Shown here: piece after piece, positions 25,309 to 60,027 of the stretch
How the letters are laid out: the number at the start of each line of letters is the position of its first letter
Numbering within the stretch: position 1 is the stretch's first letter
Source: Escherichia coli
GTDB lineage: Bacteria > Pseudomonadota > Gammaproteobacteria > Enterobacterales > Enterobacteriaceae
Length of the DNA stretch: 64,000 bases
NCBI RefSeq assembly: GCF_003334765.1
Contig: NZ_QOWT01000011.1
Reading direction: 5' to 3' (one strand)
Made by a program: the position numbers and the translations under genes
Notes under the pieces: model-generated
Database searches by the model: none
The model's input: only the letters and a program-made list of their open reading frames with translations
What the model was told of the DNA's origin: nothing

Positions 25309-27680
25309 TCTCCTGTTGCTGTCTCATAGAACACATCTTTTGGTGCATCTTCTGGGAATGTAAGGTGAATACGGCATGATTGCTGCTCATCTTTTATATC
25401 TAGCACCATGTCCGGTTTGATGTTATTGAGGAATACAACACCGTCATCCACTGATGTTGTCAGATAGTTGCCTTCACTATCTTCAATCGCAACGCCTCTG
25501 GGCAGTTTTTTGCCGTCGGAAAGTGTGATATTGAGTAATGCACGGCGTTGTGTTATCGCACTGAATCCGACTTTCCCTACTGCACCACGGCCTTGTTTGA
25601 TCATTTTTGTGCCGTTACCGATATCGACATTTTTTGGCAAGCTGGCGGTATCGATCTCAACTCCTGATGTTCGCCACGGCTGGATTGATGGAATGACGGC
25701 ATTACCCCGAAAATCTGTCCATACTGGGCCTGCCTGAGATGTAATTCTGACACCTGCAATATTGTTATCCATTTTTGCGATGGCGAAAGTGTCATTGATA
25801 GTCCACGGTGAAAAGGTCACTCCCTGATCATGTACGGCAATACCACCTGACATCGTACCGTTGTAAGTACGGCTATCACTGCCGCTTGCTCCTGCGGCAA
25901 GGCTGACTTGGGTGTAATGGAGATTGGAACTGATACTGCCGTTCAAGCTCGTTTCACGTTCGTCGTGATCTCGTTCAGCATTCACATAGTAGGACATCTC
26001 ATCTGAGACGACTCCCATGACACCAGTACCATAGTGGGTTTTATGATCGTCATGGCGAGTATACAGTGTGGCGGTGTTTGATCTGCCAAATGGAATACTG
26101 ATGTTGACGTAGAACAGATCACCATCGTCTTCATTATTTTCTGAAGCACTAAGTTGATGCTGCCAGTTGACGGAAACCGTGGCGTGTTTGAACGCTTTGT
26201 TCCAGTTAATATTAAGGTTGCTTGAGTCATTGTCACCGTCGTAACTATATGTTTTATAGCCACTGATGTTGAAACCACCCAGAATGGAGTTAGACCAGTT
26301 TAAACCAAGCGCATAAGTGCTTTTAGTCGGATCGGTATAATCATCATCAATCGCTTCAGACAGTTCGCGATAATGGCGATCAGATCGAGTGAGGCTGGTT
26401 GTTAGCCCAAGTGAAAATGGGAGATTGTAGTTCGCGTCAAGACGATATTTCTGTCCTTGCAGTGAGTCTTTCGTATCCTGCGATGTACTAATTTGGCTGC
26501 TCACTGTTAAATCGGGCAGGGGAACCAGACTCGACCGGATTGATGCCGCCTGATAATTTTCTGCTACGATAACGCCGCCGTTCATTGCACTCCAGCGTGT
26601 CAGATTCCATCCGCTCGATGCACTAATTACCCAAGGTGATTCGTCATAGTCATCGTCTACCCGCCCTATCGCGAAGCGATAACCCTGGAAGCTTTCTACA
26701 TGCTGATTAAACAGGGTGGAGGGAACAATATAGTTGTGCGAACTACCGTCTGTTTCGACAACGGTGACATTAAGATCACTATTACCATTGCGAACAGGTA
26801 CATCAGGGATAGTGAATGCGCCCGCAGGAACCAGAATGGAATGAATTAAAACTCCTTGTTGACGAATCTCGACACGAGCCTGAGAGGTGTTGGCTATACC
26901 AGTAACTTGCACACCACTGCCGCTGGTTTGCAATGCGTTGTCCGGTGCGATTTCGATACCGTAAATACTGGCTCCTTCCAACACGCTATTATTGAGGTTA
27001 ACTTCACCTGCTCGCATGAGTGTTTTAAGATCTGTAAAGGTACGTTGAAGGTAGGTTGACGAGTTCTGGTTACTGAATGTGCCATTTGTTTGTGTAAGGA
27101 ACTGATGGCTGCGTAACATCCAGTCATTAATATTAATCCCGCCTTCAAGTGCAGCCTGGGAGTAGTCCGAACTCCCATTAGAAAATTCTGCACGGCTGCT
27201 CATCAGAGAGTAGTTTAGCAGCGCAGCTGTTCCACCAGTTGCTGCGTTTGTGAGATCCAACCCTATGGGAATGATCGCCTGTGGTGAAACGATAATATCT
27301 AACGCTTCCTGGTTAGGTAATGGTGTGATTGTGGTACCCGGGTAGGACAATATATAGTCGTAACAGCCATTTTTTTCTTCAGAAGGAATTTTTAAACCGG
27401 CTTGTTGCAGAAATGCCTGATCAAGACAAATGTCGCCATTTTCATCAAAGCGCGTAGCAATGTTGCCTTTTTTTTCGCCATTTACTGATACTATCAGTGA
27501 ATATTCACCTGGCAAAAAACGGGCTGAACGGGAAAAATAATGCGATATATTAGGATCTACACCTAGTGATTTTAATGTTTCCCGATCAAAATCAACAGCG
27601 GCAATCTCTATACCATCTGCATTGGCTGGGGGAGAAAAGGCAAAACCAATGGTGTAGGCCAGTAACGTTTTTTTTAACAT
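25299..27680 (-). CDS. yhcD: Outer-membrane fimbrial usher YhcD
   Basis: 793 aa from MLKKTLLAYTIGFAF; usher-family size and composition; follows the chaperone gene. Confidence 0.85.
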   Translation of the reverse strand: MLKKTLLAYTIGFAFSPPANADGIEIAAVDFDRETLKSLGVDPNISHYFSRSARFLPGEYSLIVSVNGEKKGNIATRFDENGDICLDQAFLQQAGLKIPSEEKNGCYDYILSYPGTTITPLPNQEALDIIVSPQAIIPIGLDLTNAATGGTAALLNYSLMSSRAEFSNGSSDYSQAALEGGININDWMLRSHQFLTQTNGTFSNQNSSTYLQRTFTDLKTLMRAGEVNLNNSVLEGASIYGIEIAPDNALQTSGSGVQVTGIANTSQARVEIRQQGVLIHSILVPAGAFTIPDVPVRNGNSDLNVTVVETDGSSHNYIVPSTLFNQHVESFQGYRFAIGRVDDDYDESPWVISASSGWNLTRWSAMNGGVIVAENYQAASIRSSLVPLPDLTVSSQISTSQDTKDSLQGQKYRLDANYNLPFSLGLTTSLTRSDRHYRELSEAIDDDYTDPTKSTYALGLNWSNSILGGFNISGYKTYSYDGDNDSSNLNINWNKAFKHATVSVNWQHQLSASENNEDDGDLFYVNISIPFGRSNTATLYTRHDDHKTHYGTGVMGVVSDEMSYYVNAERDHDERETSLNGSISSNLHYTQVSLAAGASGSDSRTYNGTMSGGIAVHDQGVTFSPWTINDTFAIAKMDNNIAGVRITSQAGPVWTDFRGNAVIPSIQPWRTSGVEIDTASLPKNVDIGNGTKMIKQGRGAVGKVGFSAITQRRALLNITLSDGKKLPRGVAIEDSEGNYLTTSVDDGVVFLNNIKPDMVLDIKDEQQSCRIHLTFPEDAPKDVFYETATGECQ

Positions 27681-27700
27681 CCTTGTCGCTCCAGGCAAAG

Positions 27701-28375
27701 TTATTTTAAGTCAGTGACATATTTATTACCGCGATAACCATATCGGCTGGCTGGGTAAAACTCGACTTTTGTATCCGTAGCGTTTGTTAATGCAGTAGTT
27801 GTACTGGTGTGTGGTAGAAAATAGGTCTTATTTATAGCCCCCGTTTTTCCTGAAGGGAGCGTTTTAAATTGTAAGGTCATACGAACGACATAATTACTGG
27901 GGTTGCTAATCTCAATTTGGTCGCCATTTTTACGCCATTCCAGGAATTTCCAGGTCTCTCGCTCTTCCGGCAGGGAAGCCGGGTGGATCAGTACAGGTAG
28001 ATCCTGACGAATTGAAACAGTAACTCTGCTGCTCTTGTCATCTTTTGGTGGAATACCTTCGAACGTTACGCGTTTCAGCTCTTCTGATTGCAGAGGAACA
28101 GTCGCCTGAAGTAAAAATCGAACCTGTTGTACTTGACCGGCTTCAACACGAATAACGGGCTGAGTCGGGATTAAACGAATTGATTTATTGCTTTCAGGCA
28201 AATCAACAATGGTGGTGTAAAGCAATGAAGGATGATCATCTGTATTCTTAATATTAATACTAGCTTCACCACGCTTTTCATCAACCAGCAATACTGATGT
28301 TTCAGGAACCATCCCTGTGGCTAAGGTATTCATTGATGTTGTTATAAATACAGTGAATGTAATGTGTCTGAGCAT
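27701..28375 (-). CDS. yhcA: Periplasmic fimbrial chaperone YhcA (PapD-like)
   Basis: 224 aa ORF with a signal peptide and PapD-like chaperone features. Confidence 0.85.
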   Translation of the reverse strand: MLRHITFTVFITTSMNTLATGMVPETSVLLVDEKRGEASINIKNTDDHPSLLYTTIVDLPESNKSIRLIPTQPVIRVEAGQVQQVRFLLQATVPLQSEELKRVTFEGIPPKDDKSSRVTVSIRQDLPVLIHPASLPEERETWKFLEWRKNGDQIEISNPSNYVVRMTLQFKTLPSGKTGAINKTYFLPHTSTTTALTNATDTKVEFYPASRYGYRGNKYVTDLK

Positions 28376-28546
28376 TTAAATTAAAACTCCTGTAATAATG
28401 ATAAATAACGCAGAAACATATTGTTAATATATGTTATGCACTGTTTGCGATGAGATTGATTAAGACAGACCATGTCATAGGGCATAATCTGTCCGAGTTA
28501 TAGCTAACTGGTTAATGCGTAAAAATAAAAACTGTATTACAAGTTC

Positions 28547-29311
28547 TTATAAATACTGAACGCTGATAGTGACGTTACCATCCAGTTTGATCGTTTCATC
28601 AGAACCAAGAATAGTATTGTCATTTACCGCAGCATCAATCAGTAACGGGAAGGTGACCGCTGTAATGGCAACAGGTGTCAGTTCCCCTGTTTTTGCAACA
28701 GAATAACCGCGCTCGATTGCTGAGCAACTTGTCAGCGAGCAGAATGCGCCATTAGATGAGGCTTTCCATGTGGGGGTCGCTGCTGACCAGTGGTCAGTTT
28801 GAATCAGGTCGACAGGAATTTCACCTGTATCGTCCGCCGCGTGAATCCCACCATTAGACCTGTCAATACCAATGGATGCAGCGCCAATTTTTTGTCCATT
28901 AGGCGCAGAACCTAAACCAAAGGCGTTTTTCGTTCCCTTCATATCTACGAGAGTATCATAAGCTTTTTCAATATAGGATGTGTCGTTTAACGCTACAATG
29001 GTCGACTGACGGTTATCCTTGGAGGTTACAGCAATTAGCGTTGGTGCTGTGCAGGTTATATTTAATGTGCTGTTTTTGCGGCCCAGTTGAACCAGTTTAT
29101 TACTTTTACCGGTCGGATTCAGCGCACTGTTATGATGTTTCCCATAGTCAACAATGCCGCCGCCCGTAACAACTGGGGTACATGCACCAGGGGTATACTC
29201 GCCGATGATAGTTAATTCTGTATCAGTTGAATCTGTTGCCATGGCACTGAATGCTGCAACAGAAAGTGCTGCACAAATAGCAGCTGTTGTGAGGTTCTTT
29301 TTGAAAAACAT
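28547..29311 (-). CDS. gltF: Periplasmic protein GltF (fimbrial-like, DUF1120)
   Basis: 254 aa ORF with a signal peptide; downstream of gltD; related to yhcF. Confidence 0.85.
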   Translation of the reverse strand: MFFKKNLTTAAICAALSVAAFSAMATDSTDTELTIIGEYTPGACTPVVTGGGIVDYGKHHNSALNPTGKSNKLVQLGRKNSTLNITCTAPTLIAVTSKDNRQSTIVALNDTSYIEKAYDTLVDMKGTKNAFGLGSAPNGQKIGAASIGIDRSNGGIHAADDTGEIPVDLIQTDHWSAATPTWKASSNGAFCSLTSCSAIERGYSVAKTGELTPVAITAVTFPLLIDAAVNDNTILGSDETIKLDGNVTISVQYL

Positions 29312-29829
29312 ATGAACATATCCTTAATAACAAATTTATTTTTTAAAATAAAAAGCTGAAGCAGTATATATATCTGTTTGTGAATGTAAATAAATAACTC
29401 GTTCAGAAATAGCCAACTTGCTGGGATGTATTTATTTAATGAATTTTATAGTTACGATCATGTGAATAATAAGGTGCTGGTGAGGTGGTTTGTGGTGATA
29501 ATTATTCATTACATGAATGTTTGCGCTGAAAAATAGGAAAATATATAGATAATTAAGGATAATATATTGGTTTTTTATATTCGTATTTTGTATATTAATA
29601 TCGAGACAATTTACATGGAATGAAAAGACTGAATAGCTTGCAGAATCGGTATTGTCAGAGGTGTTAACAAGTAATTGAGACGGATTGTAAATGAGAAATT
29701 GCTTGATGTGCTTCACTCATCAGACTTGGTGAACAAAGCACAATTTATTGAAAATTATCCCTATTATAGGAAAGGTCAAACGCTCATGCCGCATTTGCCA
29801 GAAAACAACGCGCACTTCGTCAGTAATTT

Positions 29830-29857
29830 GATTCGCCAGACACAGTCTGGCGAATTC
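29830..29857. repeat. Single copy of the same dyad-symmetric unit 14 bp downstream of the gltD stop
   Basis: gattcgccagac-aca-gtctggcgaattc. Confidence 0.7.
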
Positions 29858-29870
29858 ATTGTTACCTCGC

Positions 29871-31301
<1,431 letters not shown>

Positions 31302-34300
31302 TTACTGCGCCTGCACGCGCAACTCAGCTGCGCTACGACTACGGTGACCCAGCAGTGCTTTTACATCACTGGACTTCGGTTTAACCAGCGCAAATTTAGT
31401 GGCGAAGGTTGACCAGTTCGCCAGAATCTCTTCACCGCGCTGAGAGCCGGTATGCTGCACATGCTCGGTGATAAGACCACGCAGATGCTCTTCATGGATC
31501 GCCAGAGCGTCAACGCTTAAGACCTCGACCAGTTCCGGGTTAACGCGTTTGCGGAAATCGCCGCTTTCATCGAGAACGTAAGCGAAACCGCCGGTCATGC
31601 CCGCACCGAAGTTAACGCCGGTTTTACCCAGAATGCAGACGATACCACCCGTCATATATTCACAACCGTTGTCGCCAATGCCTTCTACCACGGTGATAGC
31701 ACCGGAGTTACGCACGCCGAAACGTTCACCCGCGCGGCCTGCGGCATACAGACGACCACCGGTCGCGCCATACAGGCAGGTGTTGCCGATAATGCTTGCT
31801 TCATGGCTGCGGAAGGCGGAACCAACCGGAGGACGAATGGCGATTAAGCCGCCCGCCATGCCTTTACCGACATAGTCGTTGGCATCACCGGTCAGGTACA
31901 GTTCCACGCCGCCCGCGTTCCACACGCCGAAGCTCTGGCCTGCGGTGCCGTTGAAGTACGCTTTGATAGGATCGGCTGCCAGCCCCTGATCGCCGTGCGT
32001 CTGGGCGATATAGCCTGAAAGCGACGCGCCGACAGAACGGTCGGTGTTGCGAATATCGAACCAGAAGGTTTTGCTCTGGCGCTCATCGACAAACGGTTTC
32101 GCCTGTTGCAGCAACTGCGCGTTCAGCAGGCCGTTATCAAACGGCGGGTTGTTTTCGGTGCAGTAGAGTGCCTTACCTGGATGCGGTTCGGCAGTCTCCA
32201 GCAGCTTCGACAGCGCCAGCTTCTGCTGTTTGGCGGTGAAACCGTCCAGCTCTTTCAGCAGGTCGGTGCGACCAATCAGATCCACCAGACGTGTTACGCC
32301 AAGCTGTGCCATCAGCTCGCGGGTTTCACGGGCGATAAACTCAAAGTAATTCGTCACCTTGAATGGCAGGCCGTGATAGTGGTTCTTACGCAGTTTGTCA
32401 TCCTGAGTTGCTACACCCGTTGCGCAGTTGTTCAGATGGCAAATACGTAGATATTTACAGCCGAGCGCCACCATCGGGCCAGTGCCGAAGCCGAAGCTTT
32501 CTGCGCCGAGAATCGCCGCCTTGATGATATCGACACCCGTTTTCAGGCCGCCATCGACCTGCAAACGGATCTTGTGACGCAAGCCGTTAGCAACCAGCGC
32601 CTGCTGGGTTTCAACAAGCCCCAGCTCCCACGGACAGCCTGCGTATTTCACCGATGAAAGCGGACTTGCGCCGGTGCCGCCGTCATAGCCTGCGATGGTG
32701 ATCAAGTCCGCATAAGCTTTTGCCACGCCAGTCGCGATGGTGCCTACTCCCGGTTCGGAAACCAGCTTCACGGAGATCATCGCTTTCGGGTTAACCTGCT
32801 TGAGGTCGAAAATGAGCTGCGCTAAGTCCTCGATAGAGTAGATATCGTGGTGCGGCGGCGGGGAGATCAGCGTCACTCCGGGCACCGAATAGCGCAGTTT
32901 GGCGATGTAAGGCGTGACTTTATCACCCGGCAACTGACCGCCTTCGCCTGGCTTCGCGCCCTGGGCGACTTTAATCTGAATGACGTCGGCATTGACCAGA
33001 TACGCCGGAGTAACCCCAAAGCGACCGGAAGCCACCTGCTTGATGCGCGACACTTTGTTGGTGCCGTAGCGCGCCGGGTCTTCGCCGCCTTCACCGGAGT
33101 TCGAATTACCGCCGATGCTGTTCATCGCTTCCGCCAGCGCCTCGTGGGCTTCCGGGCTTAACGCGCCGATAGACATCGCGGCGGTATCAAAGCGTTTAAA
33201 CAGTTCGCTTGCCGGTTCAACATCAGCAATGTTGACCGCGTTTTCACCCGGCGTAATTGCCAGCAGATCGCGCAGCGTGGTTGCCGGACGCTCATTAACC
33301 AGCTTCGCGTATTCCTGATAGTCGCTGTACTCGCCGCTTTGTACCGCTTGTTGCAGCGTGCGCACCACGTCCGGGTTGTAGGCGTGGTATTCGCCGCCGT
33401 GGACGTATTTCAGCAGACCGCCCTGGCTGATGGGCTTACGCGCCAGCCAGGCACGTTTCGACAGATTCAGCAGATCCTGCTGGAAGTCTTCAAAGCTTGC
33501 TCCACCAATGCGGCTGACCGCCCCCTGGAAGCACAGGCCCACTACATCATCGTGTAGACCGACCGCTTCAAACAGTTTCGAGCAGCGGTAAGAGGCGATG
33601 GTGGAGATGCCCATTTTGGACATGATTTTGTACAAGCCTTTGTTGATGCCGTTACGGTAGTTGAGCATCACGGTACGATAATCTTTGGCAATCGCATGGG
33701 TGTCTACCAGGCGGCCCAGCGTTTCATAGGCAAGGTATGGATAAATAGCCGTCGCGCCGAAGCCCAGCAACACGGCGAAGTGGTGCGGATCGCGGGCGCT
33801 GGCGGTTTCGACGATGATGTTGGCATCGCAACGCAGGCTTTGATCGACCAGACGGGTCTGGATCGCGCCAACCGCCATCGGGGCTGGAACCGGCAGGCGA
33901 TCTTTAGCGATATTCCGGTCGGAGAGCACCAGCAGCACGGTGCCGCTACGTACCATTTTTTCGGCTTTGTCGCACAGCTCTTTGACTGTCGCTTCGAGCG
34001 TGGTTTTAGTGACGTCAAAGGTGATATCCAGCGTATCTGCGCGGTAGTGCTCCTCTTTCATCGTCGTGAGCTGTTTGAAATCGGAGTAGAGCAGAATCGG
34101 CGATTTAAAGCTTAAACGGTGCGCCTGGCCCTCTGCTTCGCAAAAGACGTTCATTTCACGACCGATACTGGTGGCGAGCGACATAACATGCGCTTCACGC
34201 AGCGGGTCGATTGGCGGGTTAGTCACCTGGGCAAACTGCTGGCGGAAGTAGTCGTAAATAATGCGCGGCTGACTGGAGAGCACGGCGAATGGGGTATCAT

Positions 34301-35855
34301 CGCCCATCGAACCGACCGCTTCCTGACCGTTTTCGCCCAGTACGCGAATTACGGAGTCCAGCTCTTCCGCGCTGTAGTTAAACTGTTTCTGGTAGCTGGC
34401 AAGCGTGTCGTCGTCCAGTTCGCGGCTACCCACTTCTTCATCGGGCAGATCTTCAAACGGTACCAGTCGGCGGACGTTTTTCTCCATCCACTCTTTATAT
34501 GGATGGCGGCTTTTCAGATCGTCATCGGTTTCTGCCGAGTGCAGAATACGCCCACTGCGGGTGTCGATAACCATCAGTTCGCCTGGCCCGACGCGGCCTT
34601 TTTCGACCACTTCGTCAGGCTGGTAATCCCAGATACCGACTTCAGAGGCGCAGGTGATGAGCTTATCTTTGGTGATGACGTAGCGCGCCGGACGCAGACC
34701 GTTACGGTCGAGGTTACAGGCGGCAAAACGACCGTCGGACATCACGATGCCCGCCGGGCCATCCCACGGCTCCATATGCATGGAGTTAAAGTCAAAGAAG
34801 GCACGCAGTTCCGGGTCCATATCCGGGTTGTTCTGCCAGGCGGGTGGTACTAATAGACGCATGGCGCGGATGATATCCATCCCGCCTGCCAGCAGCAGTT
34901 CCAGCATGTTATCCATCGAACTGGAGTCAGAGCCGGTTTCGTTGACGAACGGTGCGGCGTCGTGCAGGTCAGGGATAAGCGGTGTCTGGAATTTATAAGT
35001 ACGCGCACGCGCCCATTGGCGGTTACCGGTGATGGTGTTGATTTCACCGTTATGCGCCAGATAGCGGAACGGTTGCGCCAGCGGCCAGCGCGGTACGGTG
35101 TTAGTGGAGAAGCGCTGGTGGAACAGGCAAATGGCCGATTCCAGACGCAGGTCCGCAAGATCCAGATAAAAGCGCGGCAGATCCGTCGGCATACACAGAC
35201 CTTTATAGATGTTCACCAGATTCGACAGGCTACAGACGTAGAAGTCTTTGTCGGCTTCGAGACGCTTTTCAATGCGGCGGCGGGCGATAAACAGACGGCG
35301 CTCCATATCGCGTGGACGCCAGCCTGCCGGGGCGTTCACAAAAATTTGCTCAATGCGTGGCAGAGAGGAGAGGGCGATTTCACCCAGCACGCCTTCGTTA
35401 GTGGGGACATCACGCCAGCCCACAATCGACAAGGTTTCGCGTTGCAGTTCTTCTTCAACGATGCGGCGTGCGGCAGCGGCGAGTTCAGGATCTTTATTCA
35501 GGAAGAGCATCCCGACAGCGTAGTTTTTTGCTAAACGCCAGCCGCGCTCCTGCGCAACGATGCGAAAAAAGCGATCCGGTTTTTGTAACAGCAAGCCGCA
35601 ACCGTCGCCGGTTTTACCATCGGCGAGAATCGCGCCACGGTGCTGCATGCGGGCCAGTGCGTGTATTGCAGTACGCACTACCTTGTGGCTAGGTTCGCCT
35701 TCTATGTGGGCGATCAGGCCGAAACCACAGTTATCCCTCTCAAGGGATTTATCGTACAACATATCGTGAACCTCCCCCAGGCTCTGCGGGAACCCCACTT
35801 CCGAACCGCTGCGCACGGGCACAGAAAGAGCGTGGCGACGGGGTTTGCGTGTCAT
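31302..35855 (-). CDS. gltB: Glutamate synthase (NADPH) large subunit
   Basis: 1517 aa from [11 protein letters not shown]; propeptide followed by the catalytic Cys in CGFGLIAH. Confidence 0.95.
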
Positions 35856-36436
35856 ACGCGCGCCTCGCATTCGCCCCCTTGTTGTCCTTTTCGCATCGGT
35901 TAATACGGTGAAGAGGGGATCTCAATTACTGCATAAATATGATGAGCAGGCTGCTCATCCAGAAAGCTTCCAGCGGATTTCCAACTTATCGGGAAAGCTG
36001 ATACAGGTCAAATGGCAAGCTTATTGGTACAGAAATGTGCTTTAGCGCAAAATTCTTTATTAAATGACTGAAATTAAAATGGATTTCATCTTTAAGGCTA
36101 AAAGGGAAGTCGTTAGAGAAACAGTCAATTCCTGACTGTCATAAAGGTGTGTTAACCCTTATCCTGCCTTGAACTGACGACAAAACCAGCATTTTATACT
36201 GCCTTAATTGGTAATGACGTTTCATGCTACTGTTTTTGCCTAAAATCCATCAGGAGATAAAAAAATCTGACACAAGATAAGCAAAAGTGATTTATGTGAT
36301 TATGCATGAAATTTCGGTAATTTTGATTGATTATGCAGTTGATAAAAGCAGGCCGGGACGATTGATCCAGGTCATCGCCGAATTGAGCTAAAAATGGCAG
36401 GCTTTGGCCTCTTTTCAAGGCGCGGTCTATCAGATT

Positions 36437-59929: not shown

Positions 59930-60027
<98 letters not shown>

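Follow-up and report, generated by a model that had tools for sequence, protein, structure and literature searches.

The gltD-gltF interval of Escherichia coli: a probable junction between the gltBD transcription unit and the AT-rich control region of an accessory, normally silent fimbrial operon

The window, i.e. the whole 64-kb stretch of DNA that was analysed, carries on its minus strand the genes gltB, gltD, gltF, yhcA, yhcD, yhcE, yhcF and yhcG in this order, while nanQ lies convergently on the plus strand. Gene names were taken from the RefSeq annotation of near-identical genomes. gltB (31302-35870) and gltD (29871-31289) are followed by gltF (28547-29311), all three on the minus strand. 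According to the list of open reading frames (ORFs) and the RefSeq annotation of near-identical genomes, gltD encodes the small subunit of glutamate synthase and is the last gene of the core gltBD unit. The ORF list, Pfam and the literature identify gltF as the first gene of the beta-class gltF-yhcADEF locus, encoding a predicted fimbrial subunit with a DUF1120 domain (PF06551) (PMC5216030). The interval between gltD and gltF (29312-29870) is free of genes and, by the coordinates of the ORF list, exactly 559 bp long. A preliminary description of this DNA had given its length as 560 bp and had quoted two long A/T tracts, both of which are found in the interval; it was also right in regarding the spacer as too long and too AT-rich for a gap within an operon. 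The spacer differs from that of K-12 MG1655 at a single base. yhcE is intact in the window and lacks the IS5 element of K-12.

The spacer holds the lowest-GC 400 bp of the window (27.25%, compared with a median of 51.5% and a first percentile of 34.4%), and this is the sole 400-bp stretch in the 64 kb with less than 32% GC. Over 29300-29700 the GC content is 27-28%. Between 29312 and 29640 it ranges from 18 to 38% in bins of 50 nt and amounts to about 24-27% overall. The approximately 130 nt at the gltD side (29740-29870) are of ordinary composition, with 46-50% GC in the first 100 nt. Consequently, the extreme AT-richness, which had been ascribed to the spacer throughout, is confined to approximately 29312-29640; the earlier statement holds for this part and does not hold for 29740-29870. 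The neighbouring gap between gltF and yhcA (28376-28546, 171 bp) is AT-rich as well, with about 33.5% GC, and has a TAAC...TAAAAATAAAAA-like stretch in common with the DNA just upstream of gltF (repeat D5).

Two ORFs reach into the spacer, one of 94 aa with a GTG start (29432-29716, minus strand), already noted in the preliminary description, and one of 72 aa on the plus strand which overlaps the end of gltD (29675-29893). The coding potential of both was rejected, in agreement with the earlier view that the spacer contains no convincing ORF. We give next to no credence to the 94-aa ORF as a real protein-coding gene, for example for a fimbrial regulator. It is open and co-directional with gltF, and the same sequence has been deposited as a 'hypothetical protein' in some GenBank records of E. 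coli. However, no Shine-Dalgarno sequence is evident before its GTG start, a composition of this kind arises by chance in AT-rich DNA, and NCBIfam gives no match. Moreover, it is not kept in divergent alleles of the locus, where the longest ORFs are unrelated and encode 35-36 aa, and RefSeq annotates it in none of the 1,237 genomes which carry the spacer. Over 29312-29830, these 1,237 genomes contain no RefSeq gene.

These genomes are a minority. Of 5,426 complete E. coli genomes, 1,237 (about 21-23%) carry the accessory part of the spacer (29312-29830), with an identity of at least 99% in 1,230 of the 1,237, so that variation within E. coli is of no use for an analysis of constraint. The remaining genomes match the query from the gltD side only, and the match stops at window position 29831 or 29869. 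In 3,140 of the 5,426 genomes (58%), the fimbrial genes are missing and gltD is directly next to the DNA upstream of yhcG. In another 946 (17%), including Nissle 1917 and ATCC 25922, gltD and nanQ are 67 bp apart with a single hairpin.

The boundary between core and accessory DNA is marked by a perfect palindrome, ATTCGCCAGAC-ACA-GTCTGGCGAAT, at 29831-29855 on the minus strand, 15 nt past the gltD stop codon. This is the single palindromic unit that had been placed at the gltD-proximal end of the spacer, and it is indeed present there. The window contains five copies of the 25-nt motif ATTC(G/T)(G/C)CAGAC-NNN-GTCTG..GAAT, whereas zero are expected by chance. One further copy (22692-22716) lies at the nanQ-side end of the variable segment, and three tandem copies, 39 nt apart and in frame, lie within yhcG (23454-23478, 23493-23517 and 23532-23556), where they encode I(R/P/W)QT(M/P/L)S(G/A)(E/K) units. 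The variable segment of about 7.1 kb thus has one copy at each border. The empty site of B2-type strains consists of the nanQ-side left flank, exactly one palindrome and the gltD-side right flank. In strains no107 and BS-01, moreover, yhcG is truncated at residue ~135, which falls within the third palindrome copy. This arrangement suggests palindrome-mediated deletion or rearrangement at the locus. The 25-nt palindrome may even be a locus-specific recombination site by which the fimbrial operon and yhcG are gained and lost as modules. A weaker possibility at the same place is that the 123-nt RNA between two mapped transcript ends (29826-29704) is a functional fragment of the gltD 3' UTR. Taken jointly, the two proposals appear to us rather unlikely.

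Two other identities of the palindrome were considered and rejected. It is not a REP element, since the spacer contains no REP match and the palindrome has 1-2 detectable sites per genome, all of them at this locus. The only good canonical REP match in the 64-kb window, with 1 mismatch, is located at 60000-60025 and has no relation to the palindrome next to gltD. Nor does the gltD-proximal part of the spacer hide a yhcG-like pseudogene, since the palindrome alone matches; because it is palindromic, it encodes IRQTxSGE on both strands.

GltF belongs to the DUF1120 family in the protein database, and its relatives were found through this database; a scan of representative genomes with GltF peptide patterns gave no match. 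At homologous loci, precomputed Pfam assignments reveal a co-directional cluster of DUF1120 (PF06551), PF00345 and PF13954/PF00577/PF13953 domains as in chaperone-usher systems, and the RefSeq product names likewise fit a beta-class chaperone-usher cluster. In agreement with this, gltF-yhcADEF has been described as the beta-class 'yhc' chaperone-usher locus, which occurs in phylogroup A only and is regarded as cryptic (PMC5216030). BL21(DE3) has been reported to be without gltF (PMC6150544).

At the gltD-nanQ site of other Escherichia lineages, in which gltD is 92-94% identical to its counterpart in the window, there are divergent alleles whose GltF proteins share 78% and 61% identity with that of the window. 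Their leaders are 342-449 bp long and contain 30-31% GC. The gltF-proximal ~330 nt of the spacer are 70% identical to the leader of the allele with 61% GltF identity (L007; z = 9.8 versus locally shuffled controls), and the gltF coding sequence itself reaches the same nucleotide identity. The gltD-proximal ~250 nt are not alignable with the divergent Escherichia alleles. In Kluyvera and Enterobacter mori, the homologous operon is found between sspB and gltD in the opposite orientation, with its last gene converging on gltD. Co-transcription with gltBD is therefore impossible in these bacteria. Nevertheless, their first DUF1120 gene is preceded by 518-548 bp of DNA with 26-30% GC. Since the AT-rich leader is kept at the convergent site, it travels with the fimbrial operon and is a property of this operon wherever it is placed. 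No sequence similarity is detectable between the leaders of Escherichia and those of Enterobacter and Kluyvera; what is conserved across genera is the leader's property and not its sequence. In one Kluyvera sp. operon (L010, 8011-10724), three tandem DUF1120 genes take the place of one, each with about 255 bp of DNA of 32-35% GC upstream.

The locus attracts IS elements. In strain CFS3246 (L013) an IS1A is inserted in the AT-rich spacer at approximately window position 29400, next to the promoter predicted below, with the start of its transposase coding sequence about 90 bp before the gltF ATG. K-12 carries the IS5 in yhcE mentioned above. In an experiment on laboratory evolution, IS5 inserted repeatedly between gltF and yhcA (PMC8403718).

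For transcription through the interval, published K-12 data were mapped from their genome coordinates onto the window. Term-seq places a 'primary' 3' end of gltD at K-12 position 3360660, i.e. window position 29827, 4 nt past the palindromic hairpin (PMC7815308, Adams et al. 2021). An 'orphan' 3' end at 3360783 (window 29704) lies 4 nt past a second, weaker hairpin, GTGCTT...AAGCAC, which can be read from the sequence at 29708-29741 on the minus strand (PMC7815308 supplementary file 1). The orphan end has the higher score of the two (1859 versus 956; PMC7815308). The palindromic hairpin has the GC-rich stem-loop of an intrinsic terminator, with an 11-bp stem and a 3-nt loop, and appears in both the minimum-free-energy and the centroid fold. 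It is followed by CAAAUUACUG rather than by a U-tract, and the terminator scan made no call at this site; hence it is not a canonical intrinsic terminator. Both mapped 3' ends may instead be processing products or trimmed products of Rho-dependent termination.

In the bicyclomycin data of the same study, a Rho termination region peaks at K-12 position 3361307, corresponding to window position 29180 inside gltF (PMC7815308). Coverage upstream and downstream of this peak was 133 and 42 in the absence of bicyclomycin and 622 and 806 in its presence, giving a Rho score of 4.1 (p = 2e-16; PMC7815308). As the Rho score was computed on 800-nt windows, the point of termination is located only roughly. 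Upstream of it, at 29430-29710 on the minus strand, base counts reveal an untranslated tract which is C-rich and G-poor on the RNA-like strand, C being 2-5 times as frequent as G; the plus strand has a GC skew of +0.35 to +0.49 here. By its composition, this tract is a candidate Rho loading (rut) region for transcripts reading through from gltD. The same Term-seq dataset contains, elsewhere in the locus, a strong minus-strand 3' end at K-12 position 3367641 (score 67,634), which was assigned to an unnamed EcoCyc feature, G0-10703 (PMC7815308). The corresponding RNA maps to approximately 23995-24055 (+) of the window with its 3' end near 24045, antisense to the yhcF stop codon; it apparently starts between yhcG and yhcF and extends into yhcF.

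The orphan 3' end could also belong to a small RNA, either a free-standing gene or a fragment of the gltD 3' UTR ending at 29704, and an unannotated small RNA had been offered as one explanation of the long spacer. The score of this end, almost twice that of the primary gltD end, and its position just behind a hairpin speak in favor of this assignment. However, a search of 27500-31500 with the covariance models of Rfam 15 gave no relevant match at E <= 10, and RefSeq annotates nothing there in K-12 or other genomes. The hairpin at 29708-29741 has no U-tail, and the consensus scan found no convincing promoter upstream of the orphan end on that strand. The end moreover falls within the gltD-proximal ~250 nt that cannot be aligned with the divergent alleles, i.e. 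within a part of the spacer that is not conserved. It is more simply explained as a trimmed product of read-through or of Rho-dependent termination. For a fragment derived from the 3' UTR, the 3' end itself is the one observation that speaks in its favor. A small RNA in the spacer hence has little probability in our view.

Castano et al. reportedly argued in 1992 for co-transcription of gltBDF, and Goss et al. (2001, J Bacteriol 183:6607) are said to have come to the view that gltF plays no part in nitrogen regulation. In a rival reading, the interval would be an internal spacer of one operon. Expression of gltF would then depend mainly on transcripts that start at the gltB promoter and read through, and the AT-rich tract would only modulate this read-through. 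The three genes are co-directional, and some reads cross the region in the absence of bicyclomycin (42 in the downstream window). Lists derived from RegulonDB put gltB, gltD and gltF under the same regulators (PMC2374795), and the term 'gltBDF operon' is repeated in later papers (PMC8403718). Against this, gltF and its spacer are missing from about 77% of E. coli genomes, which nevertheless keep gltBD, and the orientation is not constant, given the convergent arrangement in Enterobacter and Kluyvera. Instead of a single mRNA uninterrupted by a terminator, the K-12 data give two mapped 3' ends of gltD and a region of Rho-dependent termination. In a compendium of 1,035 expression samples, gltF falls into a cluster with stpA, argR and waaA, and gltB and gltD are grouped together elsewhere (PMC13401006). 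The preliminary description, which treated the interval as a spacer inside one gltBDF operon, is not borne out in this respect. It had named continuous read-through across gltBDF as the outcome that would speak against its own interpretation, and the published 3'-end and Rho data show the opposite (PMC7815308). We therefore regard a single gltBDF operon as quite improbable, although some expression of gltF by read-through from the gltB promoter may occur.

The reading that we prefer is that of two independent units which meet in the interval. A scan with the sigma-70 consensus gives a single promoter-like site on the coding strand, TTTACA-16-TATACT at 29390-29363 (minus strand), about 50 nt upstream of the gltF ATG. 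The expected start of transcription would be at approximately 29356, so that the 5' UTR would measure about 45 nt. The site lies in one of the most strongly conserved parts of the leader alignment, and its -35 block ATTTATTTACA is conserved. An equivalent site, TTTACA-16-TACACT, was called independently in the divergent L007 allele, and Enterobacter has TTGACC-17-TATTAT at a similar distance. A Shine-Dalgarno sequence, AAGGA, is located 9 nt before the gltF ATG (29321-29325, minus strand) and is invariant in leader alignment A2. The earlier suggestion of an internal promoter for the fimbrial-like genes is in keeping with the data, in view of the conservation of the predicted site in the divergent allele and the separate distribution of the operon as a module. 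The supplements of Higashi 2016, of the SMRT-Cappable-seq paper and of the PhoB paper contain neither a gltF start site nor H-NS occupancy of the spacer. A peak for a minor sigma factor in a SELEX study is listed at the site gltF > yhcA > yhcD in old K-12 coordinates (PMC5493296).

Many fimbrial operons are subject to phase variation. The predicted promoter is bracketed by a perfect 10-bp inverted repeat, TATCCTTAAT/ATTAAGGATA, at 29319-29328 and 29552-29561, which raises the question of whether the leader contains a phase switch, i.e. an invertible segment like fimS or a methylation switch of the Pap type controlled by Dam and Lrp. An inverted repeat of this length, however, occurs in 27% of shuffled sequences, and the present one is absent from the other alleles. 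The inverted orientation was found in none of 1,171 genomes, and there is no recombinase gene at the locus; for these reasons, a fimS-like invertible switch was rejected. A Pap-like switch needs two GATC sites about 100 bp apart, whereas the spacer contains a single one at spacer position 412, and this variant was rejected as well. Altogether, we consider a phase switch in the spacer extremely improbable.

An H-NS nucleation site had also been proposed for the spacer in the preliminary description, and this is plausible. The AT-rich part of the spacer (29312-29640, minus strand), delimited by its GC bins and its 70% identity to the divergent leader, is a probable H-NS target and constitutes the leader or control region of gltF-yhcADEF. 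With 27% GC over the lowest 400 bp of the 64-kb window and a patchy, accessory distribution (1,237 of the 5,426 genomes), it resembles H-NS-silenced leaders of accessory genes. A PhoB site at K-12 position 3362763, at the yhcA/yhcD junction and thus 1.6 kb downstream within the operon, has been flagged as lying in an H-NS-bound region (PMC10294691 Table 1). The 10-bp high-affinity H-NS motif TCGATAAATT has two loose matches in the spacer, with little enrichment across the window. Judging by base composition, by the bound site 1.6 kb away and by the behaviour of cryptic fimbrial operons, it is likely that H-NS silences the operon via its AT-rich leader.

We thus consider it highly probable that the interval is the junction of two independent units, namely the 3' end of gltBD and the 5' control region of the accessory and normally silent gltF-yhcADEF operon. 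The following course of events would be compatible with the data. Transcripts of gltBD would mostly end within the first ~170 nt of the interval, at 29827 and 29704, as in the published K-12 Term-seq data. Polymerases reading through would then transcribe an untranslated stretch of about 280 nt whose RNA is rich in C and poor in G, and Rho would terminate them before or early in gltF; the effect of bicyclomycin is published, while the tract is assigned as rut from its composition. The gltF-proximal ~330 nt, which diverge together with the fimbrial operon, presumably carry its own sigma-70 promoter and ribosome-binding site, as prediction and conservation indicate. Finally, the AT-rich tract may serve as a binding or nucleation platform for H-NS and thereby keep the operon cryptic in the laboratory, as suggested by its composition, the downstream occupancy and the example of cryptic fimbrial operons.

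In substance, a gltBD terminator region next to the presumably H-NS/Rho-silenced leader of the beta-class 'yhc' chaperone-usher operon is already known and is an ordinary feature. The separateness of gltF, its fimbrial nature, and the 3'-end and Rho data are all in the literature. What is added here are the frequencies of the locus classes, the convergent arrangement in other genera, the leader that co-diverges with its operon and the variable segment bounded by palindromes. The result also corrects a habit of annotation, since regulatory databases and papers continue to list 'gltBDF' as one operon. Since gltF opens an operon of its own, which is accessory and silenced, regulators assigned to gltB should not be transferred to it. 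Beyond annotation, the case shows how a silent accessory operon is insulated from a strongly expressed core operon directly upstream, by two hairpins and a Rho-dependent tract and probably also by an H-NS-bound leader.

Compared with known systems, the locus agrees with the original description of the gltBDF operon (Castano et al. 1992; title cited in PMC6150544) in its three genes and in their order and orientation. It differs in that distribution, convergence in other genera, 3' ends, Rho termination and expression clustering all part gltF from gltBD. The palindrome resembles the REP/BIME palindromic units as a short, GC-rich palindrome just past a stop codon with a mapped mRNA 3' end. Unlike these, it fails the REP consensus and is not dispersed, and three of its five copies lie in frame within yhcG. 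Cardinale (2008) and Peters (2012) have reportedly described how Rho and H-NS silence AT-rich DNA that E. coli has acquired horizontally. The likeness here consists in a bicyclomycin-sensitive region at the entry to an AT-rich accessory cluster and in an untranslated RNA with more C than G. There is no unusual difference, and the published list, which includes the yhc site, runs to several hundred entries (PMC7815308). A further resemblance is to the cryptic, H-NS-silenced chaperone-usher operons of K-12 (Korea et al. 2010, cited in PMC5216030), which share the long, AT-rich and gene-free leader before the first pilin-like gene. They also have in common with the yhc operon its accessory nature, poor expression in the laboratory, an H-NS-bound region and IS insertions nearby. 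The yhc operon differs from them in being the only beta-class operon of E. coli and in its co-directional place just downstream of a highly expressed core operon. For this reason, its leader must also absorb the read-through from gltBD, with two hairpins and a Rho-dependent region.
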